A DNA stretch of 64,000 nucleotides from Mytilus edulis. Its lineage: Eukaryota. The DNA lies in contig NC_092353.1 of assembly GCF_963676685.1 (NCBI RefSeq), forward strand, positions 4,526,001 through 4,590,000. The letters run 5' to 3'. The notes under the pieces were generated by a model. It ran no database searches. It was not told where the DNA came from and was given only the letters and a program-made list of their open reading frames with translations. Made by a program: the position numbers and the translations under genes. Position 1 is the stretch's first letter; the number at the start of each line of letters is the position of its first letter. Shown in pieces: positions 4,201-38,000 of this stretch.

Positions 4201-7200
4201 CGGTAGGTCTCATTCATGAAAGGGGAGAGGATTTTAGTTACGACGTAAGGCAATGTGACGTGACGTCTGCAGCCGATATCGTCATATGCCCTTATTACAA
4301 TGAGTCATATGCCCTTATTACAATGAGGTATTGTATACTTACTGTTCCATTACCACAGACGGTTATCTGCTGACATTGATTTGGGTTTGAAATTCCATCG
4401 CAGTTAAGACAATAGACTAAAAGAATAAACATAGATATAAATATAGGAATGTAAACATAAACTTTGAACCTATTTATATTTTGTTTATCCTTGTTTATCC
4501 GTGTGTATCAGTTTTACGACTTTCTTTGATATTTGGACACAATTATAAATAAACTAAAGAAAAACTCAATTGATATCTTGACAATTTATTTCGTGACCTT
4601 TATCTTACGGGCGCTGACTAAAAACCTGTTTATAGATAAAAAAAAAAAAAAAAAAAAACAATGTGTCGCCAGTACACGGATGCCCCATCCGCACTATCAT
4701 TTTCTATGTTCAGTGGACCGTGAAAATGGGAGAAAATCTCTAATTTAGCATTACAATTAGAAAGATCATATCACAGGAAACATGTGTACTAAGTTTCAAG
4801 TTGATTGGACTCAACTTAATCAAAAACTACCTCGACCAAAAACTTTAATCTGAAGCGGGACAGACAGACGGACGAACGCACAAACCAGAAAACATAATGC
4901 CCATAAATTGGCCATAATAATGGATCTTCGTTCCTCGTCCGTCGTTATACTCACTAAAGCCTTCATAAAAAAATCCTTAGTTCTGGTCAATAAGGTCAAT
5001 CCTCAAAATATGTAGCCATATTGAAACATATAAATATGTAATTTTCAGCATTCTTGACACACTCAACCTCTTCGTCTTTTGGAGCATTCGTACTGAAATA
5101 TATGAGTTGCTGAAAAAATCATTCATATAAGTTGTTACTCATGCGGGCATAGTGCTTGACAATGTTTGATATTGGCATAAATATATATAACTACATTACT
5201 TACAACATTGCTGACACATGTGGGGACACAATGCTTTGACGCAGTCGTACTGACATGGATTAGGGTACAGCAGAGCAAATCTTTGACACGTGTCTTCGTC
5301 TGTGTTGACGCAGAAGTCACTACCGGAAGTAGGCACTGTTTTATATAAATAATGAATAAGTTATTGAGACTTGATAGAAGACATTTAATATCATTAACTT
5401 CATGTTATCATTAATTTGACAATAATATGAATTAGCTGTCATATAATTATATACTTAGTTTAACTTATGTCTTTACATTATAGTTACAAAAATGTGCTTT
5501 TGTACATGTGTAGATTATGAGTATTTGTTTTAATTCCCAGATGGTTGTTTTTAGCATCTGACATTAGTCTGTTTGTTTTACTTGGATATGTCAGCAGAGG
5601 TATCGACTAAGTCTGAAAATGAAATAACACGTTGTAAATGCGCTTTTTTCATTTATCTTCATCAGGAAACAGTTTTGCAGTTTTGAAATTATTAATATTT
5701 ATAAAAATGTTGGACATTTTGAATCTGTTGTTATACTGAAATTGTCCTGAAATTGTGTTTTCCTTATCCAGTCTATATCTTGTACCTCTAGCTTGATTTA
5801 TTGCTCTGTTAACTATTTTTTTTTATTTCTAATTATTTATATTTCAGTCTTTGTACTTACTCTGGTGGGGGTATATATATGAACTGATCGGGTTAGAGTT
5901 TGGTACTTGTCGTTATGCGTTAACCTATGTACATACCTATTGGGTTAGGTGTTGGTAATGGCGTCGAATTTAATAAAGATGGTTGTTTGTTGTTACATTT
6001 ATCATGGTTACAACAACCTGCATCAAAATTTACTCTCTTGTCTTGCGAACTGGCAAACTGTTCACAAGTCTAAAAGAATATGCTATATGTTTATTCATTA
6101 TTCACGACAAAAATAAGAAAAAAACTTAATATGTCGTCTATATGGTTTCTTATACTTGATTGGAAGTATGAATGACAACGTGGTAAATATCCAATTATTT
6201 TAAATGACGTAGATTTTAAAAGCAATAACACAGCACCGGAGGTTTTCAACAATCAGCAACACCCCGTATACTACGCAAATAAAGGCTCCATCGATTCTAA
6301 ATGTGAAACAATTCATACGAAAACAATCAACGGCCCTTTTTGTGACTAATCAATAAACGACCAAAATAATTATATACCAAATAACAACCAACGACCATCA
6401 CTACAGGTCTCTAGTTTGTTTACAATCACTGACTTACAGGTCTCTAGTTTGTTTACAATCACTGACTTACAGGTCTCTAGTTTGTTTACAATCACTGACC
6501 TACAGGTCTCTAGTTTGTTTACAATCACTGACTTACAGGTCTCTTGTTTGTTTACAATCACTGACTTACAGGTCTCTAGTTTGTTTAGAATCACTGACTT
6601 ACAGGTCTCTTGTTTGTTTACAATCACTGACTTACAGGTCTCTAGTTTGTTTACAATCACTGACTTACAGGTCTCTTGTTTGTTTACAATCACTGACTTA
6701 CAGGTCTCTAGTTTGTTTACAATCACTGACTTACAGGTCTCTAGTTTGTTTACAATCACTGACTTACAGGTCTCTAGTTTGTTTACAATCACTGACTTAC
6801 ATGTCTCTAGTTTGTTTACAATCACTGACCTACAGGTCTCTAGTTTGTTTACAATCACTGACTTACAGGTCTCTTGTTTGTTTACAATCACTGACTTACA
6901 GGTCTCTAGTTTGTTTACAATCACTGACTTACAGGTCTCTTGTTTGTTTACAATCACTGACTTACAGGTCTCTAGTTTGTTTACAATCACTGACTTACAG
7001 GTCTCTAGTTTGTTTACAATCACTGACTTACAGGTCTCTTGTTTGTTTACAATCACTGACTTACAGGTCTCTAGTTTGTTTACAATCACTGACTTACAGG
7101 TCTCTAGTTTGTTTACAATCACTGACTTACAGGTCTCTTGTGTGTTTACAATCACTGACTTACAGGTCTCTAGTGTGTTTACAATCACTGACTTACAGGT

Positions 7201-10200
7201 CTCTTGTGTGTTTACAATCACTGACTTACAGGTCTCTAGTTTGTTTACAATCACTGACTTACAGGTCTCTAGTTTGTTTACAATCACTGACTTACAGGTC
7301 TCTAGTTTGTTTACAATCACTGACTTACAGGTCTCTAGTTTGTTTACAATCACTGACCTACAGGTCTCTAGTTTGTTTACAATCACTGACTTACAGGTCT
7401 CTTGTTTGTTTACAATCACTGACTTACAGGTCTCTATTTTGTTTAGAATCACTGACTTACAGGTCTCTTGTTTGTTTACAATCACTGACTTACAGGTCTC
7501 TAGTTTGTTTACAATCACTGACTTACAGGTCTCTTGTTTGTTTACAATCACTGACCTACAGGTCTCTAGTTTGTTTACAATCACTGACTTACAGGTCTCT
7601 TGTTTGTTTACAATCACTGACTTACAGGTCTCTAGTTTGTTTACAATCACTGACTTACAGGTCTCTTGTTTGTTTACAATCACTGACTTACAGGTCTCTT
7701 GTTTGTTTACAATCACTGACTTACAGGTCTCTAGTTTGTTTACAATCACTGACTTACAGGTCTCTAGTTTGTTTACAATCACTGACTTACAGGTCTCTAG
7801 TTTGTTTACAATCACTGACGTACATGTCTCTAGTTTGTTTACAATCACTGACTTACATGTCTCTTGTTTGTTTACAATCACTGACTTACAGGTCTCTTGT
7901 TTGTTTACAATCACTGACTTACAGGTCTCTAGTTTGTTTACAATCACTGACTTACAGGTCTCTTGTTTGTTTACAATCACTGACTTACAGGTCTCTAGTT
8001 TGTTTACAATCACTGACTTACAGGTCTCTTGTTTGTTTACAATCACTGACTTACAGGTCTCTAGTTTGTTTACAATCACTGACTTACAGGTCTCTAGTTT
8101 GTTTACAATCACTGACTTACAGGTGTCTTGTGTGTTTACAATCACTGACTTACAGGTCTCTAGTTTGTTTACAATCACTGACCTACAGGTCTTTAGTTTG
8201 TTTACAATCACTGACCTACAGGTCTCTTGTTTGTTTACAATCACTGACTTACAGGTCTCTTGTTTGTTTACAATCACTGACTTACATGTCTCTAGTTTGT
8301 TTACAATCACTGACTTACAGGTAGTTTGTTTACAATCACTGACTTACAGGTCTCTAGTTTGTTTACAATCACTGACTTACAGGTCTCTAGTTTGTTTACA
8401 ATCACTGACTTACAGGTCTCTAGTTTGTTTACATTGAGTGTTTACCTGCTTAGGATTTAACGTCAATTACTAGTATATCTATTATAACAAATTATAGCTC
8501 TTCTTAACACAGCCCCAGTCCCACTAGACCACAATCGCAAAATTTTCGTTGCTTTCACGATGCTACTACGTCCTCATTACGCTTTTACAACGATTCTGCT
8601 ACGATTATACCACGTTCTCACCGCGCTTATTCTGCGACTTTACTACGCTAATCAGGATTTTTCTACGATCATCACGTTCTTACTACGACCATACAACGAT
8701 TTATCCGAATGCAACACGATATGTTCACGCTTCTACTGCGATTATAGCACGTTCTTACCACGATTATACTACGTTCAAACCGCGATCTTACTACGTTCTT
8801 AGCAATAACGTCAATACGTGTTCCATATCAATACAGCCCATTCCTTCTATTTCTGATTAATATGTAGATTTATCGGAAACAATACTGTCATGCCACCACA
8901 ATCTACAAAAACACGTGGGCGTGGTGGAAGGGGTTGATTTAGAGCCAGAGAGAACTCTGATAATAACGAATCCTGATCAAGCAGAGATGTCTGACCGACC
9001 AATCCAACCTAAATTACAACATATTGCTGGTCCATAAAGCTCAAATGACGATATTTTAGTGAACGATAGCAGAGATGACAGATGTGGCAAAATATATAGG
9101 AATATGTGGTACGAGTGCCAATGAGACAAATCTCCATCTAAGTAACACATAAAAGTAAACCATTATAGGACAAGGTACGGCCTTCAACACGGAGCCTTCG
9201 CTCACATCAAACAGCAAACTATAAAGGGCCCCACAAATTACTAGTGTAAAACCATTCAAACGGGAAAAACAACGGTCTAATCTATATAAAAACGAGAAGA
9301 ATGGTTGAGCCGTTAGAGAAAATGGAAAAGTAGTCCTAATTGCATACAGACAAACAAAACCTGAAGAGATTCAATATGTTTTATGTGAAAATGACAATGA
9401 GAATGAAGGTCGTAGTATGAACATAGTCAGGTCGTAAGAAGAGCGTGGTGAGGACGGTAAAAACGTGCTAGAATCGTACTATTGTCGTGAACAGCGTGAT
9501 ATAGTCGTATCGGTAGCGTAGACGGGTCGTGGTGAGAACGTGGTGGTCGTAGAGAGGTCGTATTAACGTCGCTGCGAGATCGTATCGCAGTCTCTCCGAA
9601 TAGAATCACGCTTTCGCTACGTTCTCGTCACGATGGTACAGCGACCTTTGCGATATTACTACGACCTTAGTGTGCTCTCACTGCTCTTCTACTACAATTT
9701 GATTTTGCCACGACCGCACAACGATTGTTTTGAACATGTTAAAATTTGGCCACGCTCATCAGATGTTGAAAACCTTACTGCGACCGTGATACGACCTTAC
9801 TGCGATCTACACGATCGTACTATGATCATCAAAATTTGCATTTTTATCACAGACGGTAGTGCAATCGTTGCCTAGTGGGACTGCAGTATTAAATACGACA
9901 AGTACACACCCGTGATATCGCGGGTCCGTGACTGAATTAAAGTATATAACTATGCCTTATTTTAGTAATTGGTATTGTCATCTGATAAGTCATGTCGATT
10001 ATAAGATACACAGTTTTCTCTGCTTTCAAATCTTTCTGTTTGAACCCGTCGACCTGGAACTTATCAGTTATTGGAAATAACAATTATTTGGAAAACAAAA
10101 GGTCCTGGCTATCCAGGAATGGAGTATTTTTTAGTCAACAGCATTGTCCTATATAAGTTATCTTAGAAAGTCTTGCTGATTGCTGAATAAAACTACAATA

Positions 10201-15400: not shown

Positions 15401-17794
15401 CTTGATATGGTCCTCTCAGGTACACAGTTTAAATCACCTGTAACCGGAGAGCTCGAATTTCATTACAAAATTACTTGTCTCCACCGGGACTCGAACCCGG
15501 GACCTCTGTGTTACAAGGCAGCGCGCTAACCGACTGAGCTAAAGAAGTACTTCCTTAGCTCAACCGCTTACGGCTGACTAAGTATCTACAAAATGTTCTA
15601 AGGGAAGCAATCCCGTCACACTCCCCCCACCTCAAGAGTCATCATACCATTATGACTCTCACACAAACATACCCTAGCTAGAATTCCTCTCTAACTACCG
15701 TGGGTTTTTTAGTTGGGCGCCAATGTAACCGGAGAGCACGAATTTCATTACAAAATTACTTGTCTCCACCGGGACTCGAACCCGGGACCTCTGTGTTACA
15801 AGGCAGCGCGCTAACCGACTGAGCTAAAGAAGTACTTCCTTAGCTCAACCGCTTACGGCTGACTAAGTATCTACAAAATGTTCTAAGGGAAGCAATCCCG
15901 TCACACTCCCCCCACCTCAAGAGTCATCATACCATTATGACTCTCACACAAACATACCCTAGCTAGAATTCCTCTCTAACTACCGTGGGTTTTTTAGTTG
16001 GGCGCCAATGTAACCGGAGAGCACGAATTTCATTACAAAATTACTTGTCTCCACCGGGACTCGAACCCGGGACCTCTGTGTTACAAGGCAGCGCGCTAAC
16101 CGACTGAGCTAAAGAAGTACTTCCTTAGCTCAACCGCTTACGGCTGACTAAGTATCTACAAAATGTTCTAAGGGAAGCAATCCCGTCACACACCAATTAT
16201 TGTCAGGTATCTATTGTCCATCTATTGTCCCTGTCAATCAATACAGCTCACTTCAATTATTATCTGTGGGGAAGTTCTCAAACCTGTTTCCAAACTTAGT
16301 TTATTTTGGCATTTCCTGGAGGAACGAAAAAAAGTGCACTGCAAAATCCTGGTAAGTTTCTATTTTTCTAAAACATTAAACATATTTGAAATTTATTTGT
16401 CTAGGGCATGATATGCCTTAAAACTTTTCCAGAGACTTCCCGAGGAAAATGATCCATTTTTGCACTTCAAGAAAATAAAAAGTCTAAAATGGAACTACCT
16501 TTAGAAACAGAAATTTCTTTTCAACCAAATACAAGATTTACCAATACCACAATCTGATTTGCAGGATGAACAGGAAGAAAACGTTATGGAAACGCATGGA
16601 GAACATTTTTTAGATACTGATAATTCACCGGAGTTGTATGAACTTTTACCGGCAGTTATCCAAACCCTTAAGAATGAAGGGGAAATGGACTCTTACGTGA
16701 AGTTCAATAGGCTTCTGGACGGGAATAAACTGCCTCTAAAATATATTGCATTCTTGTTATTTAAGGATGTTGTTTCGTGGTATTCGTTGGACGACTCTCA
16801 TAAAATGCGTTATTCCCCGGAGGTGAAACAGTTTTGGCGAATAGGCCTCAAACTTTTTAAGGGAAGGTTTCTGAGATTTATGTGTGGCATGAAAAATCAA
16901 GGTCAAGATATCCAGAGACATTTGAATCCCGAAGATTCAGCAATTAACTTTGCAGTACCAGATCGTAAATCATTATGGATGGCTTTGGTGTGTTCTAGAT
17001 CTGTTAGGGAGGATTTTGATGACACAACTAGTTGGCACACAGAACACTCATAGGTGGTTTTCTCCTCTTTGCTTCTATGGCAGGTATTGTGATGTTGAAG
17101 TAAAGATTTCTTGTATTGGTATGTTGCATTACAAATACTGCACCTTTCCTTAAGTGCAGTATCATGAGATGCAAGGTGACCCTTGTAGTTCCAAAGGGTA
17201 GCAAACCCCTTTTGGCAAACGTAACACTGATATCTAAACACCTTCTCGTGTATTGTTTTTACATGTAGTGAGAGTCCGTAAGTAGTTTTGTACATTTCCC
17301 ACAAATGCTGCAAAGTTGTGTTTTTGGTGTTATTTCATGTCCAGGAGATGGATGTTAACTATCCATGTGGCGTGTCAAGTTTCTTTTGTAGTTGCTTGAA
17401 AACTGACAAACGTTGCATTTAAACTCATTTTGATTTTCTGTCTCCACTTCAATCGTTACAAGCGATTCATCAATTCCTTCTATTTCGAAAGATTCATCCA
17501 TGGTCAATTTCTTAAATTTGAAAGAAACGAAACTTTATTTTCCTTGCATGGTTTTGTGTTGTGAAATAAAATATGTAGGTATGATGTTTTGCGTTTCAAG
17601 AAGATTGAAATTATGATATAAAATCCATCTTTAAAGTTTCAATAATCTTGATTGTCATCTAGGTAAATTAGGTGCACTATGCACTCCTGTTTACATGTTA
17701 AACGTTTGTTCATTGTTGAAGACCATAACGGTGGAAATGTGAAGTTTGCCGCTGTCAATGTCATATTCAAGCGCTGTATATGTAAAGCACAATA

Positions 17795-23044: not shown

Positions 23045-26000
23045 CTATGATCGTGTAACATAGCACATAGGAATGGCATGGTGATTGCAATCCACAGGTG
23101 ACAAACCATAAGCATATACTATATGTCCGTTAGTTCCTGTGAAGTATGATATGTAGGCTACTACGCATGTGTTGTGAGTAAGATGGAAATCGTGTTCAAT
23201 CAGTTGGGGATTCGCTGTCGTCTTGTCACTGTCCCAGATCCAATGATCCAATAAATCTTTAGACAAGGATGTAAATACCTCTGGAAAATAGCAGCAGTTC
23301 ATTAATAGTTGCTAGGATTTAAAAAAAGATAAAGTATGATTTCCATTGAGACAACTCTTCACAAGAGACCAAATGTTACAGAAATTAACAACTGTATGTA
23401 ACGTCTTCAACAATGGCTGGATCAAACATGCTAGGACGTTCATTTATGTTTGCTGTCTTGCGTTTAAAAAGTAAAAATAAATTATTCAAAGATTTAAGCT
23501 AAGGAAGGACCTTAAACTTCCTATAAAATAGAAGAGCACAAACAAAATATTGTTCTGCACCTATCATATTCTAAATTATGCGCTTGTTATTCAGTGGTTG
23601 CCGTTTGTTGGTGTGGTTCATTGGGGTTACTCTCGTTTTTTTATTTTGTTATATAGAATTGTATTACACTAGTCATTTGCGGGCCTTTTATAGCTAGCTG
23701 TTCGGTGCGATCCAAGGCTCCATGTTGATGGCAGAACTTTGACCTATAATTGTTATCTTTTTATACATTGTGACTTGGATGGTGAGTTTTCACATTAGAA
23801 CTCATACCACAAAGAAATCAAAATATTGATAAATAGTCAATAATCGATTCTGTTCCAAAAAATATAAATTTTCGCACCTAGTTAGTTTAAAATGTGGGTC
23901 AGAGCTGGGACTGTCGGAATGGTTGATTAGGTACCCCTAATGTTATATGTATGACGATGTTTAAGAGATGGCTTTACTTAAAAAAAAATATCACCTAACG
24001 AGTAGTAGATTTCTAACAAGAAGCAATCCTCTTTTTTTTAAAAAGAAATCCTTAGGTATTTCTGGAATATCTTGTCACCTATTTTGTGCAAGGAGATATG
24101 TGTTCAATTTGCTGTCTCGGTATTGCTTCATAAAACGTAAAATTGCGAAATAGCCTTTTATATGATTATATTTTTACTTTAATTTTTAATTATAGAAACT
24201 TACCGTCACCATGGTGATGATTGTTGTCATAGTGAGAGAACACGTTCAATATTTCCACTTTGTCTGAGAATTTAACCAGATGAGCACACCTATCATGACA
24301 GTAGCGCTAAAAATAAATTTATAGTCTATCATTAGTAACAGATATATTTTTACAGTAAAAGAACATTAATACCACACTTCGAGGAAAATTCGACAAAACA
24401 AACGCACATAAAGTAAACACATCTTAGGTCTAAATATTACTACCTCAGCATTGACTTTGGTCACGTTTATGTTCGGTGGCATGTGGTAACAGTTTTTGCC
24501 TATTGGTTTAAATCCCGCTGGACAGGTCAGATGATACTGATAACTACAATCTGAAAAATGCAATGTGTCATTGATTACAAATAACGCTTTGTTTCATACC
24601 ACCGCTGTTCATATAAACTATGTAAAAATTATTCGTCATTTCAATGTAAACGAACCACACCATTAAATATTATAAATGACTGGACATTAAAATTTTTCTC
24701 ATATCTTCTTTTATCAAAAGTAATGTGTGTTGGTTCTTTTTATGTTTGCTGTTTTGTCGACAATGATCTATACATATTCCTCTACTCAAATTCCATTAAT
24801 TGATATCAAGCGTCAATCACAATAAAAGAAAATCCAGAACAGCGGTTCAGATGTAAAACATTAAGTCTGATACTATTTTGATTTTAATACTGATAAAAGT
24901 ACATCCAGACATGCGGTTCGGAAGCTCCAACTTTTTAAGGCGTTGTTATCAATATGAAAGTTTGATAATCTAGAAACACTTGTTTTCTTTATGTTGGTTT
25001 GCCGACGTTTGGTCTATTTCTCTAACACTCTTAATACATATTGATTAATGTTTATTTCAAGAGTCATTGGCGAGGAATTACTTTAGAAATGCGTAATTTA
25101 TATCATTGATTGGATTGTTCTTAAGAATTAACTAAAGGTGTTTTCAAATAACGCTTTGGGAATAATCGTTCACATACATATCAGATTCAATAAGTACCCA
25201 ACTATAAATGAACACATTTGACTGTTTGTAGATCATTATTTGCTCTTTATTGATCTTACGTGTTCTAGCATATATAATTTTTCATTTTTCATACTTTGTC
25301 CAACTATTGCAGGCGATGAAGTAGAGACCGTAGCGACTGAAGGTTGAGTTGTCACCGCACCATCGGGATGTGTATTGCAAAAGTCACCAACACAGCATCC
25401 CCCGGTGAAGGTAAACTTATCCCGTCTACCTAATACGTGACCTGATGGTGTTTGCAGAAGGTTGCATACCTTTAGAAACAAAATACATATAAAAATGAGT
25501 ATGTGAAAAGTGTTAATAACATGATAACAAGATATCTTACAAGTAATAATTCTGAGGATATCAACAAATAAGTTTTTATTAATACTTTGTTAATAAAATA
25601 AATTATTAAAGATGTAGTTTGATTGCCAATGAGAAAGCTTAGGAACAAAAAGACTAGGCCACAAACATGTTAATTAATTCATCCAATGACCTTGCTTTGT
25701 TGTTGTTGTTTTTTTTTTGTTTGGAAGGGGGGGGGGTTACCTTGGCCTGTATGAGTACAACCACAGAAGTTAATAAACTGAATTTCTCATAGGACATGTA
25801 GAAAATTCGTCTGTTCGGAACAAATTTCAGTAGCTTCATGCATACGGTTCCTGGCTGTTTTTCGCATATTAAGTTTGAAAGCGTTTAAAACCAACGAGTA
25901 CCAACAACAATGGACTTAACTAGTAATCTTAACAGTACCTGTTCGTCAATGCACCCTAGTTCGACTGCTGGCAATCTGTTTGATCCTATTTTCTCATAGC

Positions 26001-29000
26001 CATAACATTGCTGAATCAAAAGTGAAATTGTATAAACCTTTTTTTTTTAAGTATTTCTGTCAGACAAGATACACAGCCTAAAGATTTAAAAAAAGTACCA
26101 GCTATAGTAGTTCATATTCAATTGATCAAGCATTGCAATTGTCAAATTTTCAAATAATACTGTAGAGAAAAGATCTTAAATTTGATATCAATAGCCCTTT
26201 AGCATTTTTTTTGCTGTCTTAATATATAGTACTATTCAATATTTATAAAGAAAAAATGCTTTGATTTTATGTTTTGCTATAAATTCATTCCAATAAAATG
26301 TGTTATTGTAATAAAAAGAGTCATCTGCATCAAATAATATACTCGCAAGGCAACACTAAAACTTAACTTCTTTGCACCTGTCCAGATATGTCCAAGCCAG
26401 GAAGCCTTAGGCTTTGGTAGTCTTGTGGCGATATTGTTGTCATTTGTATGTCTCAAGGTTTATAATTGCGTCCATTTCGACGATCATTTATTAATCATTT
26501 TTTCTATTCTCTATTTCATTTAACCAGAAACACTTACACAACCTTGTGAAAGCACAATTACTCTAATCACATGGCCGGTAAGACGTGATAACCAATATAA
26601 GTATTTGTGTTGTAGGTACTTTTATCCAGTCAGGGAAAACGTCAACCAATTTAAATAAGTCTTCATATCGTTTTGCAAGAAATCAAACGTGCAAATTTAA
26701 AGCATTCTCCTTTAAACACAATGATCGACAGGAACCGCACAATATCCATTTTTTTCGTAAATAAAGTACTGACAACTAACCTTTCCATATCCACATGCTG
26801 TTGTTTTAGTACAATTAGCTGGATGATTGACTTCATTGCAGTCAAGACAATAAACTACAACATTTATAAAATGAATGAAAAATTGTTCCATTAAAAAAAA
26901 CCAATTGGTTTAAAAGAAGGGAAAACAAATAAAAAAGATAAGGAAGGAAAGATATCATTTAGAAATTTTCCTCTCGCACGTAAAACCCAAAGTTACAAAA
27001 GGAACACATTGAGTTCTTTGCACTTTATGTTTTTGAATTAAGTATAGTTTGAACTATTTTACTAAAAAGGCAATATCAACAAAAAATGTCAAGAATTCTA
27101 TTTTTGCAAGCTATTGTGACATGTCCTAATCAGCAAGTAAAGTCACACTTGAATTATTTATATATTTTGTCTACTTACAACATTTCTTACACATATGAGG
27201 ACATATTTTGGAAGCGATACAGTCGTCAGAGCAAGGATTAGGATGAACTATTGCCAGCCTTGTACATACATCGTCGTCCAGGTTCACACAGAAACTTTTA
27301 TCAGTAGTAGATACTATATAAAATTAAACACAATGTATATACCATATATCGTCTTTTCGTTTTCAAAGGGGATCAACACATCTTCCAATTTAAAAAAAAA
27401 AAATGTGTAAAATCGAATTATATAATATTTCAAATACTCAAATGCAAAAAGGTAAAAATCACAAAAATACTGCACTCCGAGGAAAATTCAAAACGGAAAG
27501 TCCATAATCAAATGTCAATATCAAAAGTTCAAACACATCAAATGAATGGATTACAACTATTATTATCATGACTTGATACAGGCATTTTGTTAAGTACATT
27601 AAGAAATTATTCGCTATGAAGAATTTTGATATTTAAAGGATTTCTTGTTACATTGTTTGAATGTTGAACTGAATTGTAGAATCGTTAAAACAGTTTCAAA
27701 TATATGAATTTATACATAAACTATTTTGTTCGAATTTCCTTGTTCATATAAATGATTTATATAAGTTCTTTTAATGTTATATAATCGTAAATATGGAAAC
27801 TGATTGCAGACATGGTGGAATGTTTTGAAATCATATATCATTATATTGTCATCTTATTAATTATTAAACATATTCAACATGTTCAACACTTTCAACACTT
27901 ACTTGTTGCATTAGTAAAATTTTGTTTTGGTATCACTTTCATGAGAGCGGGCGGTTTATTGTTACATTTATCAGTGTTACAGCATCCGGCATCTAAGTTT
28001 ACTCTTTTTGTTGATATCGAGGCATATTGTAGACAGGTCTAGGATACATAGAAAACATATTACATCTCAAAATATATGAATCGACGCTTCTTATCTGTTC
28101 GATATATAGTAAAATCATGCTTTCAATTATTACAATGACTAAATTAAGATTTGGGGATTAAAGCCAATGAAACAAATAGTTATCAAATGTACCAGGATTA
28201 TCATTTAAAACGTCAGACGCGCGTTTCGTCTACAAAGACTCATCAGTGACGCTCATATCAAGATAGTTATAATGCAAAACAAGTACAAAATTGAAGAGCA
28301 TTGAGGACCCAAAATTCCAAAATCATTTGAGTCAAACACGGCTAAGGTAATCTACTCCTGGGATAAGAAAACTCTTATTTTGTCTAAAATATTTAATATA
28401 AAAAAGAATATGTGGTATGATTGCCAATGAGACAACTATCCACAAAAGACCAAAATGACACAGAAATTAACAACTATAGGTCACCGTACGGCCTTCAACA
28501 ATGAGCAAAGCCCATACCGCCTAGTCAACCATAAAAGGCCCCAATAAGACAATGTAAAACAATTCAAACGAGAAAACTAACGGCCTTATTTATGTACAAA
28601 AAAAATGAACGAAAAACAAATATGTAACACATAAACAAACGACAACCACTGAATTACAGGCTCCTGACTTGGGACAGGCACATACATAAATAATGTGGCG
28701 GGGTTAAAGATGTTAGCGGGATCCCAACCCTCCCCTAACCTAGGACAGTGGTATAACAGTACAACATAAGAAGAAACTATAAAAATCAGTTGAAAAAGGC
28801 TTAACTCATCAGAAGGACAAATATACAAGTGGACGTGGCCCGGTACTTATACATCTTGACACAAAAAGACACAATAAACAGATCTGAGAGTACTCGCAGT
28901 TATCTGACAGCTAGTTCAAAGTTAAGTTTTGTCAACAGGAAATTTATTAAAATTACCATATAATAAATATTCATGTCAACGCCGAAGTGCTGACTGCTGG

Positions 29001-32000
29001 GCTGATGATACCCTCGGAGACCAAACGTCCACCAGCAGTGGCATCGACCCAGTGGTGTACCAGGATTATAATTTAATTCGCTAGACACGCGTTCCGTCTA
29101 CATAGACTCATCAGTGATACGCAGGTCAAAATAGTTATAACGCCAATCAAGTACAAATTTGAAGAGCATTGAGGACTAACAATCGTTGAGGAAAAAATAT
29201 GCATTATGCTACAATGTGGCAGAGGTATTGTCATATTGTATTGTTCTGCAATTGTGTAGCTCTATGAATTACAAAATATGCATGCAATTAGAAGAAAACA
29301 AAATTAAAGAAATAAAAGATGATCAAAATATGTGTTCGTCTCGAAATCGGACAATTATAAACTCTAGTTAATTAAAGGATAAAATGAAAGGATGATGAAA
29401 CACGAACTCTAATATACAAACCTTAATCGTACCACAACCAAAACGATAAGCCTCAGCATATACAAACCTTAATCGGACCACAACCAAGACGATAAGCCTC
29501 AGCATATACAAACCTTAATCGGACCACAACCAAGACGATAAGCCTCAGCATATACAAACCTTAATCGGACCACAACCAAGACGATAAGCCTCAGCATATA
29601 CAAACCTTAATCGGACCACAACCAAGACGATAAGCCTCAGCATATACAAACCTTAATCGGACCACAACCAAGACGATAAGCCTCAGCATATACAAACCTT
29701 AATCGGACCACAACCAAGACGATACGCCTCAGCAAAGTTAATGGTAAAAGTCTGGGCAGTAAAACAATACTGTAATATAATAATTTATCATCAATTGTTA
29801 TTTTTTTAGCTTTTTCTGTCAGCGTATTTGTTATTATCATTATCTATTTGCAGCTAGAAAATCTAAACGGTCTCAAATCCTATCTTTTAGAAGTATAGAA
29901 AAACAACAATTCAACATCTACCATTTTAAATTAAGGGGATCCTATTACGAGAGAAAAATTGTTGTTATTGGTTTTGGTAGGCGGCTTACTTATGTAGTAA
30001 TTGCGTCTTAAATTCATATAACATAAATATAAAGTATATATACTTTCAGTCTTTAATTTATTTTTAGTATTACGTTTTGGCGAGTAATAAAATGAAACTT
30101 TGACGAACATGGTTGAATGAATTACTAGGAAATATGTATATGTTGAGAGACAAAAAAAAATACATATCAGAAGGTACATGTAATAGGAAAATGAAAAAAA
30201 GAGCCAATGATAGTTCCTAATGAAATGTACATTATTAATTGATAGGTATCAAAAAAATTGTTTAGAAAATTTATTTGGTTGTTCACCTTTGATAGAAAAA
30301 TACAAATTGATATCCCGGTCGCTGCTTACATTAATCATATTTGCTAAGGAAACTATCAAAAATATTTTGGACCAAAAATTTGACATTATGCGGTAACGTT
30401 TCTAAGAAACTTTCAATATAGTTATGCATAGTGGTTTAGGAGAAGAAGTACGTTAGTGTTCACATATGGCAGGTACACCAAATAATAGGAATCGCATAAC
30501 GAAATGGAAAATGAGTTGAAAAAGTACATTATGTGAAAATTTAAAGTAAAGTGTCAAGCGGTTATGAAGCAATTGTGGATACATATGTTGGACAAACGAA
30601 CGAATTCTATTATCCCTACATCTACTGTCAGTTCTTGACAGCTTGTGCTATACCAATATTACACTGTCTTTACCTGATCTTTGGCACATGTCTTTACTGT
30701 AGTACATTGGGTAGCGTCGTCAACATCGATACATTCGTAGCAGGTCAGAGCTAAAAGCATTAGAAAACAAATGGAATAAAGAATAACAAGAAACATCATT
30801 TCGGTATATTCTTTTAATTTATGATAATAAATCATGTTTATATAGACTTGAATAAAATATCATTATAATAAATACACCAATCATTCATACGCGGTTAAAT
30901 AGTTACAACTCATACAGACGTCGCGCAAAATACTGGTGATAATAACGTAACGTCGGAAATATAGCAAAAAGCCGTCTTATTTTCTTGTTTTTTACGTAAC
31001 GTTTTTCTAATGTGATTTCTAATGTGTAAGCATTGATTCATTCAGGGTTTTTTTCATGGGAATATTTTTTTTCAGTAAAGATATTCATGTATATTTTATT
31101 TAACGAAAAATGTATATATATATATATATATATATACAACTCGTCTAAACATTATGTTTAGACGAGTTGTATATACATTATGTACACAGCCATGTATCAC
31201 CATCATTGATGGCGATCCGATGGATACATCTGTTGTAGGGTTGTCACTGACTCAGACGTACTTATATATATATATATATATATATTTTATATTTTTTAAT
31301 TATAAGCAGAGCCACGTTGAATCATTTCATTTGAATCGGAAAGGTCTACTAAAATATTTTATGAGTGGCTAAACAACAGTGCATGATGTTTTATAATTTA
31401 ATTCTTATTTCAATCCAAATTGTCCAATACAGAAAGAATGTCTAGATGGGTGTCCTCTGAAATAGTTATACGATAAGAGGCATCTACATCAGCAAGTATG
31501 TATAGCAGAGATTTCGTCGGTACCAAAGCAGTCTTTGTCTTTAAAAGTTTATATTTTAACGGATCATTGTCACTGATTTTGTCATAATAATGACCCCGGA
31601 AAACCTCGAATCCAGGGGGATATGTAGCACCCCAGCTGTCACTCTCTGCTGAATTCAATACGTGTGAACCTTTGGAAATTTTCATTAAATAATAGTCAAA
31701 GTTATCATCGTCGGTTTTGACAGCCACAACAGAGTTTATGGATACCAAATCTGATATGTCTTCTGAAAGAATGTCAGTGTCTTGTGCTACTTCTTCTTCG
31801 TTAGAAGTTTGTGTTATTTCGCGTGGCTTAATAGTTTTCTTTACCCCGGTATTTTCTACATTTAAACAGTTAAGATAATTCCCCAAAATGCATTGATCGC
31901 ACGTGTAACAAGAGAGATCGGAAACAATGATTTCATTACATGTACTAGTAAAAACATGATGTATTTGTCTATTTTGCTGGATCGGCTTAAATATTTTGGA

Positions 32001-35000
32001 ATTGTGTCTATCAATTGAGTCCACATATCGAAATACCCTTCTTTTAAATAATGCACTTCTTGGCTTTTTAAGGCTACTTTCGCAGAACGTAAATAAATCC
32101 TTCGCATTCTGAATCACTGTATTGCCACGTAGAACAGATATGTCCGCCTGTCTTTTTATAAATCCCCCCGCGGCATCTTGAGGCCCTTTTGCATGGCTTG
32201 TTTCAAAGAAATTTCTATGGAATGTTTTATATCCGAAATCAGGGATGGCAGTAGATAAACTTCCTAAACAGTGCCGCGATTTATATTGGCTAGAACAACC
32301 GTCTGTGAATTCATGCATATGATCAACTGTGTATGATATTGAATCTAAATATTCCTTAACTTTCTTTTGGACATATTTTGTAAAATCATTATCATGTTGC
32401 AGGTCCGGGGAAATTACGAAAAAATGTTCCGTAATTATTTCCGGAAATTCTTCTGTACTGTCTACACCATCGTATTCTAAAATGGCGTGTCGGTGCATGA
32501 CGGTTACATGAATGCTGCATTCAGTTCTTTGGAAGTAATTGGATTGGATTTCTTCTTTCTCGACACAGCGATAATTTTCCGAATAATCGTGGATGCATAT
32601 GCAATGATTGACTGGCAAGTTCTGAACAAGACTTTTAAGTTGATTGCTTTGCCAGTTTGATCGGTGCTGGTGAGCGGGGAAAGTTTCGAGAAGCTTTTTT
32701 AAATTGAGAAACATTTCGTTTACGCTAGTTTTCTTTTTTATCAGGGTCAGTCGGCGCCTTACATTTTTACCCTTCGATTTTTCAGTTATATATTCATATT
32801 TTTGCCATTCAACAGTTGAAGACGACTGTGATTCGTTGGGTGAAAGTTTGAAATTACCAACTCCGCAAAGGCTACATTTTCGGTCAAGACAATTTTTTCT
32901 ATAAAATCCATTTACTTTTGGACATAGCGTAATATGTATAAGGTCTGACATTTTCTCAAATACGGGATAGTCACTTTCTTGCGAATCGGTTTCCCTGTCA
33001 CACGATTTTCTGAACTTCATACATGCTTTGAAAACAAGGTTTGCTTCCACGTGATATCTACAACAGCATGTATTTCTATCTTTTTCAGATGCAGGTCTTA
33101 CGAAAAACGGTCGAAGTTTCTCAAATGCTCTTTGTCCAATTTTAATTTCCGGATATTTGGCGACAAAATCTAAATACGCATCAGTTTGTGTTTTTTCCAG
33201 CACGTGTGTCATATGCGAAGTATATAAGTTTGGTCCCAATCGTTCTCTTTTGATATCGGATTTGTTGCCGGTCGGGTGTGATATGCCATCAGAGAGCCAA
33301 AAGTTATAAACTGTTTTCTTTGTTTCTTCTGAAATGGAATCTTTTTTTGTTTTCTGTTGCGTAAGAGCCCATGCAGACGTTTCACTTTTAAGAATTCTAG
33401 ACCTAATACGCTGGCCTCCAGCAACCCTTCTTGCTGGCAAACCTAAATTTTTACACAGTTTAATTTTACCTCTCGAGTTTGCTAAATTTCCCCCGCTGAT
33501 TGATGCAGTAACAGAATTCATTACCGAACGTGCATTCTTAGATCGCTTTAATTTTGTAGATTTTATTATTTCTTGAATATCTGCAACGACGGCCATTTCA
33601 ACTGGCGAAACTGAATGTTTCAGATTAGCTATTGTTGGCGATCGAGGGGATCTGCGGGCCAAATAAGTCGATATAACTGCGCATCGTTTAGATGGAGATT
33701 TTGGTAAACCTTCTTTAAATTTTCTTAGGGCTCTGGCCTTTTCCATTCTGTTTTTGAAAACATTTGAACCTTCTGGTACAACAAGTGACATTGATGAAAG
33801 TTCTACATTTTTTTTACCTCTGTGTTTACGGACATTCATTTTATTTTTTAGTTTTCTTTCATTTATTTTCTTAGATTTCTCCCTTTGTTCTCTCTTTTTT
33901 CTTGCATTAATCGTTTGACTATATGTTTTTGTCTCGCTCTCTTTATTCTTGTACAACTTTCCATAAGATTTTCTACTCGTTTCATTTTTCTGAAGCCTTT
34001 TTCGTTCTCTGTTCCTAATAAGTATTTCCTTAGCCGAAAGTTTACTTTTTTTTCTGTTATTCATATTTCTGAAAGCATATTTATATTTGAATGTACACAA
34101 AATTTTGGTCTGATTTTTTTAAGTCCGATTATTTTAATTGATTGTTGGTTTATAAATACATTCAATAATTAAATATGAGTCTTTTTTGTCTCGTGTTTTA
34201 TTTTTTTGGAACTAATCATTCTCCTGAAACACCAGAGATCATTTCGGTTGTTTGAAGGGATTGGTGCCTCTTGTTTTGTCTACGAAAATTATCTAATATG
34301 GTAACTCTTCTTTTAGATTGTTCCAGAACTTCCTAAAGTCAAATCATTTTTTACGAATTTTAATATAGAATAATATTTTTATTTCATTAAGGGAGCAACC
34401 ATTTGATTTTAATGGGGGGGGGGGGGGGGGGGGGGGGGTGCTAGGATGAAAAATTTTGTCCGGCATTTTTTTTAGTTGTTATCTCGGTCCTGCCTTTTTA
34501 TTTTCACTATATTTGGTCCTGCCTTTTTTTACAAGTTTATCCTGGGTTTGTTTGCCAACTGCTCATCCTGCCCTTTTAACCCCACCGCAGTTCGCGCCTG
34601 TCCTAAGTCAGGTACCTATAGCTTTTGTTAGTCTTTTATATTTTTTTACTTTTAGTTCATCTCTGTGTTTCGAAGTGAAGAGTGGCGTCCATTTTCTTGA
34701 TCTAGTATACATTAGGATTTCGGGGCCTACTCAAGACCTCCTCTGGGTGCGGGATTTCTCGCATGTTGAAGACCCATTGGTGGCCTTGAGCTGTTTTCTA
34801 CGTTTTGGTCGGGTTGTTATCTCTTTGACATATTCCCCGTTTCCATTCTTATTCATTATTTTTTTACTCGAAACTCCTGTCTGCCTTTTTTTTACACTCA
34901 AAACCCCTGTCCTCCCTCTTTTTCAAATTTCATTCTAGCCCCCCCCCCCTTAAAAATCAAATGGAAGCTCCCTAAGGCAAAAACATGCCCATATCGTTTC

Positions 35001-38000
35001 ATGTTTGGAGATCGATTCTTTACAAGTTCTTCTTATAATTTCTTTTGCGTATTGACTCTGTGTGAAATATGACGTTTCATTATTTTTCGACGTTTTTTGT
35101 CTCATTGGACATTTTTTCTGATTTTTCTTTTCTTTATTTGCGAAAAGGATAAAATATAAAAACAGCCAGTATTTATATTATCATGTTCAGTATTTGTTGT
35201 AATTTTTGAAATCTGTATCAGTATTTTTCTTCTGATTTAATCGCGATACATCGTAGATCCCGAAATCGTCAAAATGGAATATTTGTTTGGATTTCAGATG
35301 ATACGGGACATTTTTTCTGATTTTAAATTTTTTCAATAGTTTTTTTTTTAAAACAAGTAAACTCAAAAAGTTTGGTACCAATTTAAACAGAAATGTTTGT
35401 AATTTATAAATTATAAATATAAACGATATCCTTTTAAAATTACCTTCAGTATATGAATTTGATCTTCAAAGTTTGCAGTTGGAGTCTAGATTATTTGTCA
35501 CCATTACAAGATCAAAAAGTTGCTATGACGTCATTTTTCTACATGTATGACGTCATATATGTAAGTAAAATTATGTAATTCAAAACTTTACATATGGTTC
35601 TTAATTCCTTCCAAATGAGAACTACCTTTGGCTACTCAATCCATATTTCATTCTCAAAAATGTTTGGAGATCTCAATGTTCAATGTTACGCATTACACGG
35701 CAAAATTGCCTATTTCATAAAATTTAGCGCTTCAAATCGAAACCTATTCGTGAAAAAAATATCATGAAAAACAGATATTTTGTTGCCATTAGATTGGGTA
35801 ACGAAAATTATTTAGCGATTCTGCAAATTGTTGCGTCCTAAACGGACAGTTAGCCTTTTCGCCGATTTTTCTCGAATCACCTTCAAATTGTCACCAGTAT
35901 CTTGCGCGACGTCACAACGTTTTCTGAATGGTTTCATTTTAATATGAGTATAACAATATGAAAATGGGGCATGATTGCCAATGTGATTACAATCCAACAG
36001 AGTCAAAAGGACGAGTATTTAAGCAACTATTTGTCACTGTGCAGTTTTCAACAATGAATAAATGACATACCGTATACAAATATTATCAGGTATCTTTTTA
36101 TCTTCATATAAATTTATCGTTTATCACATTAAAGCATACCGTTTAGAATGTTCAACAAAGTAAATATCTTGGAGAAAAAAAAAGGATTGTGAAATTGTTC
36201 ATCACTTGTTGATTATATATACTTACGACATAAACCACAAGTTCTTTTACAGAATTTAGACAAACAGGGATCACCACACATGTCTGGTATCCGACTTTGC
36301 ATCAAACTACACAACGATTTACTATCATCATCACATATCTCAGCCAACGTCACAGTAAACAATACACATATTACTGAAAATAAAATAAAAAACTTTATAA
36401 AAGTTAATGAAATGAAGAGCAAACGTTATAATAAACAAAACAGATGATGAGTTTTCCAAGGTTTTAGTTTGTAACCAGGGTTTGGTTTTGCTTAAAGATT
36501 TATGAATATTGAACAGATGTAAACTATTGTTACTTTTATTTACCACAACTTAAATGAGTGAAAACACAAATATTTCATTAAAGTTGTTGTAATGATTAGC
36601 AAACTTTACTGTTCACACAACACAAGTTACTAAAAACACAAAAAACTTCATAACTGTAAGTCGAATGATCGGCGAACGTTAAAGAAAAAACAACACAAGT
36701 TACTGAAAACACAACTTCATTAGAGTCAATTTAATAATTAGCATGCGTAGGAATAAACACTACACAGTGTACTTAAAACACAAAGACTTCATTATAGTCA
36801 ATAAAATAATCATTAAACGTAAGAATAAACACATAACACAAGTTACTGAATATTCGAAGACTTCATAAGAGTCAATCAAATGATAAGAAAACATGAGAAT
36901 AAACACTACACTATGTACTGAATGCATCGAATAGTTAGAAAACGTAAGAGTAAAGACAACACAGGTTACTGAAAACATAAAGACTTCATAAGAGTCAATA
37001 TAACGATAAGTAAATTTTACTACATTGTCAAATGATGTTGTACACATTGAAAACGACATTTCTTATTCGTCCTTGATGTATTTAGAAAAGGAGTTTATAT
37101 AAAAGAAAATGTCAGATGAACAGTCCTATAGTTGTACTGACCTGATAGAGTAACAATTCTGTAATATTTCATGGTCGACATTTTAGGTGACCTTGTTGTC
37201 TTATCCTTTTATCAGTTCTGTGGCATGACTTTATATATTTCTCTATTGATATTGATCTAAATCTGTTGTTCACGAATCCAAACAGAAATGTAAACATGTG
37301 AACGTGTTCAACCTCAGCTTTTCGTAACATTTATGAAATAATACAATATCACAGTTTTAAAGACGAAGGGAACTATTGTCGTGAACATATATTCACGAGT
37401 TTAAAACACAGTTTTCAGAATATTATTGAACCAGTCGAGGATTATATATATATAAAAAAAACGAAATGCAAGAAAATGGAGACATATGATCTAATTCCGA
37501 ATAGGTTAAGGTCGTGATGTCGTTGATACAAATTATAACTTTATAAAGTGTTAATACTCATGCTACATCTATCTTTAAAACACTTAAATTTGCTAAACAC
37601 CTTATCTTATTTTAATGATAAATATGTTCCTTCCCTCCGACCAACTGCGTTGCGTAAATCGTAAATCATTTAGAGGAATCTGCTTGATAACGTTAAAAGG
37701 TATTTTCATTTCATCCTGTAATTCAAACAATACGACCACGACACTTACAAAAGAAGAATTTCTGTACATACATATTTATTTTACTTTGCTATCGAATTTT
37801 AATCAGAGATGATGAACTTGATCTTTGTTTACTGTACTCGATGACAAAATTGTCCTTGCACAAAATAAGCTTGCTCGATTTGTCAAGTGCTCTTTCTATA
37901 TTATTAACACCAATATTATAAGCAATCAAAACAGGATTTTTTAGTTACTGTGACACTTCCCACTCTAAGGAGGATATATATCAGATGTGGATACTAGAAA

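Follow-up and report, generated by a model that had tools for sequence, protein, structure and literature searches.

A seven-copy minisatellite across the exon-4 donor of a Mytilus edulis Ly6/uPAR-type gene, probably tolerated rather than regulatory

What becomes of a gene whose 5' splice site, together with the end of the exon before it, has been copied over and over into the intron that follows? The question is raised by gene 2, a minus-strand gene of the window, by which we mean the whole 64,000-nucleotide stretch of Mytilus edulis DNA analysed here. It had been proposed in the initial annotation that an exon end plus donor is amplified seven times in this gene, and that the array might tune productive splicing or give rise to a short secreted peptide. 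We conclude that the array is genuine and young, and is probably a harmless feature, not a switch by which the gene is controlled. The features on which the argument turns are these:

23045..37181, minus strand: host gene 2, with a 457-aa product from 12 coding exons (same as public model P0004)
29698..29769, minus strand: gene-2 exon 4, 72 nt, in the middle of the first LU domain, with the authentic donor (RNA contig, paralogs)
29412..29734, minus strand: tandem array of 46 bp x 7.0, made of the gene-2 exon-4 end plus donor (TRF)
29412..29688, minus strand: units 2-7 (276 bp), each with its own pseudo-donor, skipped in the contig of run X5
29683..29685, minus strand: TGA reached on reading through donor 1 (VCIC, then stop), at the joint of units 1 and 2

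Gene 2 runs from 37181 to 23045 in twelve GT-AG exons, and use of the first of the repeated donors (donor 1) leaves the 457-aa frame intact, giving exactly the product of P0004, a model labelled Mytilus edulis. Its layout reads as a Cys-rich (ShKT-like) domain, an LU domain, a second ShKT-like domain, a second LU domain and a C-type-lectin-like domain. The Pfam UPAR_LY6 profile matches the protein with 25.3 bits (cut-off 24.8) over residues 64-139 in two stretches, and on its sequence we assign it to the Ly6/uPAR (LU) domain proteins, with two predicted LU domains; a paralog of gene 2 also scores as a C-type lectin in Pfam. The Pfam ShK profile has no match on the gene-2 exons or on the whole protein, and the ShKT label, which we take from a UniRef name and a six-cysteine pattern, is presumptive. 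The protein is predicted to be secreted, the signal peptide having been called by eye. At least six paralogs with a common exon plan lie in two clusters (G000:C10:4.50-4.58 Mb and 6.26-6.28 Mb), and we found no published description of what this LU-lectin family does. From the first protein cluster assembled for gene 2, 11 of 16 members were dropped as an unrelated neighbouring gene brought in via a fused model (10 aligned, 1 not listed). Intron 2 of gene 2 holds an element of about 5 kb (30917-35913) bounded by terminal inverted repeats of 27 nt; its open frame of about 880 aa (31416-34064, minus strand) has no Pfam match at cut-off, and the element is presumably an intact DNA transposon.

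The array itself is simple. TRF returns a period of 46, 7.0 copies and 98% matches at 29412-29734, each unit joining 36 nt from the end of exon 4 to 10 nt from the start of intron 4. The genuine end of exon 4 lies in unit 1, and the minus-strand donors fall at exon ends 29698, 29652, 29606, 29560, 29514, 29468 and 29422, in steps of 46 nt, each with the 9-mer AAG|GTTTGT (7/7 units). The sevenfold amplification first reported is thus borne out by TRF and by the donor positions, and the unit sequence quoted at the time is exact for units 2-6, which are mutually identical; it does not hold for unit 1, the coding copy, which has a single, synonymous change, or for unit 7, the last intronic copy, which has two changes that would be non-synonymous were they coding. 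The resemblance of the exon-4 junction to its own intron is not chance, with a score of 94 against a shuffle maximum of 35, and in a search of its own genome the unit was matched at the gene-2 locus only (a lower bound). We regard the array as young because its units diverge by just 1.9%, because a search beyond the array found no older copies of the unit, and because the locus is single-copy in run X5. It is an exon-intron-boundary minisatellite (mirage or F7-type), with four of the five defining features of that class present: among them, it is a head-to-tail repeat within the 10-160 bp unit class (46 bp x 7.0), the unit at its edge straddles a genuine exon-intron junction (RNA contig exit at 29698; 72-nt exon in 6/6 paralogs), and the splice signal is reiterated within the intron in every unit.

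Is such an array an accident of assembly? Of 24 sequencing runs on record, seven were compared with the window; the three DNA-type ones among them (X1, X2 and X5) carry three different organism labels. The array is present in X1 and X2, which come from different studies and each yield array-internal contigs, and is single-copy in X5, where array depth is absent and a 376-nt contig skips exactly 276 nt, or 6 x 46. This contig has none of the private changes of unit 7 and represents a one-copy allele, as compared with the seven copies in the window. In X1 the internal contig, which forms a closed loop of 76 nt (46+30) when words of length 31 are used, has a depth 5.8x that of one flank contig and 3.1x that of the other, the expectation for seven copies being 5.5x; in X2 one contig carries both private changes of unit 7 with zero differences, and the array-internal contig stands at 20-29x its very shallow flank, a depth which hints, if no more, at an allele longer than that of the window. 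These ratios were back-calculated from bin means, and depth is no copy number. An assembly artefact, or a badly mistaken copy number, would draw support from the fact that no contig in X1, X2 or X5 bridges the whole array and that the evidence comes from contigs rather than long reads; set against this are the internal contigs from separate studies, the exact match to both private changes of unit 7, and the five- to sixfold depth in X1, so that we consider such an error extremely unlikely. As far as contigs can show, the array is no artefact. Because X1, X2 and X5 bear three organism labels, the difference in copy number may lie between species and not within one.

One RNA contig bears on the choice among donors. 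This 1464-nt contig from run X16 joins 30674, in exon 3, to 29769 and continues into exon 5 after 29698, in base-for-base agreement with the offsets of the donor-1 model. The same junction appears in 4/4 full-length models under three species labels (gene models, not reads), and we take donor 1 to be the ancestral donor because exon 4 is 72 nt long in all six paralogs. At three exon-4 SNPs (29725, 29746 and 29749) the X16 contig agrees with the one-copy allele of X5, and for that reason it is probably uninformative on how the array allele is spliced. Use of donors 2-7 was seen in none of the reads or contigs, with the X16 haplotype probably array-less, exon cover thin, and contigs of this kind omitting minor isoforms; in raw RNA runs X22-X24, interspersed repeats dominate and the exons of the gene are almost without cover.

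What a later donor would do to the message can be read directly. The claim that read-through of donor 1 adds VCIC and then meets TGA is confirmed in the sequence, and so is its corollary that any later donor brings a premature stop: donors 2-7 all lead to one and the same 116-aa product, with a stop 833-1063 nt before the last junction. A stop so far upstream of the last junction makes a transcript a target of decay by the usual animal rule. The premature stop needs no design, because early stops are the default here: in 16 of 24 modelled introns an in-frame stop lies within 46 nt past the donor (median 32.5 nt), and on the one-copy allele, too, read-through of the donor would stop at codon 18. 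The gene does present one hallmark of an NMD switch, an alternative-isoform stop far upstream of the last junction, in which the same 16/24 introns are much alike. The conservation that marks such switches is not seen: the array is absent from X5 and from 4/6 paralogs, and the array in gene 1 is a separate unit. A 30-nt in-frame micro-exon beginning at the GAG of each unit was considered and rejected, since the nearest gaps would be short (16 and 62 nt) and GAG is seen in 0/11 real acceptors.

Gene 1, a paralog in the same window, holds an array of its own at the homologous donor, an observation that goes beyond the initial annotation and is new:

49694..50908, minus strand: gene-1 intron 4, array of 52 bp x 23.4 derived from its own exon-4 end plus donor (TRF, shuffles)
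50920..51468, minus strand: exon-proximal part of gene-1 intron 4, decayed copies of the 52-bp unit, period 52/58

Copies of the exon-4 end plus donor make up nearly all of gene-1 intron 4 (49631-51468, minus strand), and of the 38 minus-strand CAG|GTR words in the window, 26 fall in this intron and 12 elsewhere. The authentic gene-1 donor is at 51469, and the further ones follow 84-1735 nt downstream of it. The 52-bp unit matches its own junction with a score of 52, reached by 0/2000 shuffles, and the gene-1 exon-4 peptide and junction are invariant in 8/8 models under five species labels. The decayed copy nearest exon 4 lacks its GT, a loss that could mean selection against a near competitor. 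The gene-1 array is the older of the two. The homologous exon-4 donor was amplified twice, independently, in genes 1 and 2, because each unit matches its own gene's junction and is found only at its own locus: the 52-bp unit is identical to its own junction at 41/52 positions and to those of the other five paralogs at 26-33/52, the 46-bp unit at 45/46 as against 22-31/46, and the own-genome search for the gene-1 unit likewise matched only its own locus (a lower bound). A single ancestral array for both genes was rejected on these own-junction matches and on the existence of a one-copy allele in gene 2, and a dispersed satellite family as the source was rejected on the single-locus matches of both units, themselves lower bounds. 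A tree of the six paralogs has no starred branch and gives no order of events.

Two arrays at one exon might suggest a hotspot, and we surveyed 96 distinct junctions (48 donors and 48 acceptors) of the six paralogs for copies of the junction in the adjacent intron, some boundaries outside the window being approximate. Clear duplications number 4/96, namely the exon-4 donors of genes 2 and 1, the exon-2 acceptor of gene 2 and the exon-5 acceptor of a distant paralog, while among 276 positions drawn at random from these genes 29 have a local copy, a control inflated by positions inside arrays. Junction duplication is no commoner than background, and no hotspot is shown; given two donor hits, the chance that both fall at exon 4 is about 0.09-0.13. 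The gene-2 acceptor case is as follows:

36598..36994, minus strand: gene-2 intron 1, old array of 72-74 bp units from the exon-2 acceptor plus the exon-2 start (0/3000 shuffles)

In the distant paralog (L003, about G000:C10:6278950-6279090, minus strand) a two-copy duplication of about 69 bp crosses the exon-5 acceptor, and the upstream copy reads AA in place of the acceptor AG. A match at the gene-1 exon-7 acceptor failed on retest (p 0.11), and marginal donor matches at gene-3 exon 6 (p 0.008) and in two outside paralogs (1/3000 and 2/3000) were left uncounted. Intron 4 of gene 3 contains a 33-bp x 61.7 array (6402-8433) with a coding-strand GTAAGT word in each unit; it was rejected as a third case, being unrelated to the exon-4 end (score 15, p 0.27). 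A metagenome pattern scan gave 0 matches. Elsewhere in gene 3, intron 2 carries a tandem of 285 bp x 2.6 (15439-16191) with a tRNA-like piece per unit, which scores 26.7 of 29 bits in Rfam (below cut-off) and is not called by ARAGORN; the unit is probably a tRNA-derived SINE.

The reading that we prefer, at a probability of about 0.72, is that of a variable 46-bp donor minisatellite, near-neutral and tolerated since copy 1 stays exon and the later donors are mostly silent. A recent one-step tandem duplication of 46 bp across the exon-4/donor junction would have begun the array, and unequal exchange or slippage would have lengthened it; the upstream donor would be chosen via exon definition or 5'-to-3' scanning, and any leaked, stop-bearing transcripts would be removed by nonsense-mediated decay, hiding the leak from selection. 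The array could then persist because the upstream donor wins and decay clears what leaks. The synonymous change in the coding copy, set beside the two non-synonymous ones in the last intronic copy, supports tolerance with a tiny n; the probably array-less origin of the X16 contig and the location of both donor arrays at exon 4 count against a neutral reading. It is possible, though unlikely, that the allele is instead leaky, identical donors 46 nt apart competing while NMD removes part of the message, so that copy number acts as a dial for dose, whether accidental or selected. All seven donor 9-mers are indeed identical, alleles do vary in copy number (with the X2 depth hinting at a longer array), each later donor does bring a stop 833 nt or more before the last junction, and there is precedent for such competition: the human genes CBS and 6-16 use two extra donors beside the authentic one, leaking to the next two (2/5 human cases cited in passages of PMC1557585), and in HeLa cells splicing goes almost wholly to the downstream site when a strong donor is duplicated at a distance of at least 45 nt, according to passages of PMC3413131, the spacing here being 46. 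However, no read or contig seen uses a later donor (weak evidence), early stops are the default in introns here, the rate of junction duplication does not exceed background, gene 1 is conserved despite far more extra donors that lie closer to consensus, and the first donor dominates in the published cases as described in portions of PMC1557585 and PMC3087553.

A bolder variant makes the exon-4 donor a recurrent site of amplification, the gene-2 array a copy-number dose allele and gene 1 the final stage, its nearest competing donor gone; we hold this composite to be unlikely. That the array yields a stable, short, secreted peptide is very unlikely. Such a product of 116 aa would comprise the signal, the first Cys-rich domain, the first half of the LU domain and VCIC, and it is true that the later donors converge on this one product, with eight cysteines in its LU part. 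The LU domain (residues 64-139) would nevertheless be cut short before its C-terminal CC..CN end, the five gene-2 models seen (4 full-length, 1 fused) include no form of this kind, and the array-less allele would yield a different tail. Seven further junctions also follow the stop, the last of them at a distance of 833-1063 nt, and the message should be short-lived if decay works here as in other animals.

As a neutral repeat, the gene-2 array does little more than give a published class an example from a mollusc. It has a modest value as a test case, in that alleles of one and seven copies, together with the older array that arose independently at the corresponding junction of a paralog, allow competition among donors spaced 46-52 nt apart to be studied without engineering. 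Were leakage to scale with copy number, the array would offer a simple route to variation in the expression of a likely secreted mussel protein, and if the dose-allele reading were true, the matter of which identical donor wins would be directly testable in wild invertebrates.

The class of exon-boundary minisatellites is already published, for human F7 and CBS and for the amphioxus "mirages"; our literature search found no report of one in Mytilus, and the passages of PMC10078293 consulted contain no boundary repeats. A more distant relative is the gain of introns when an AGGT site is tandemly duplicated (PMC3265369, PMC4974935), with which the mussel array shares an AG|GT in each unit. The mussel duplication, unlike those, runs into an existing intron and creates no new one, and its last AG, used as an acceptor, would not restore the coding frame. 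Boundary minisatellites in human CBS intron 13, 6-16 (IFI6), lamin B2 and PDGF, as cited in passages of PMC1557585, likewise place reiterated donors after an exon; the use of extra donors recorded there for CBS and 6-16 is not seen in the mussel data.

The closest vertebrate parallel is the 37-bp VNTR of human F7 intron 7, in which, according to passages of PMC1557585, 5-9 identical donors are present and the most upstream alone is used. In F7, as here, the first unit spans the exon-intron boundary, the donors are identical, the authentic one is the upstream one, the array is polymorphic, and a premature stop would follow from the use of most later donors. The two differ in that the F7 unit takes 4 exon and 33 intron nt, the mussel unit 36 and 10, and the donors are accordingly spaced at 37 nt as against 46. 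A one-copy allele exists in the mussel, unlike F7 as those passages describe it, and donor choice in F7 was tested in minigenes, whereas on the mussel array allele it is a prediction. Nearer in kind are the amphioxus mirages of the globin and Adh3 genes, which by RT-PCR leave splicing undisturbed (passages of PMC3087553). Those, too, are minisatellite-like duplications in an invertebrate, at donor and acceptor boundaries, several to a gene family, with haplotypes that vary in copy number and border units that escape homogenisation. The mussel arrays differ from them in belonging to another phylum and another gene family, and in that two paralogs amplified the homologous donor independently.
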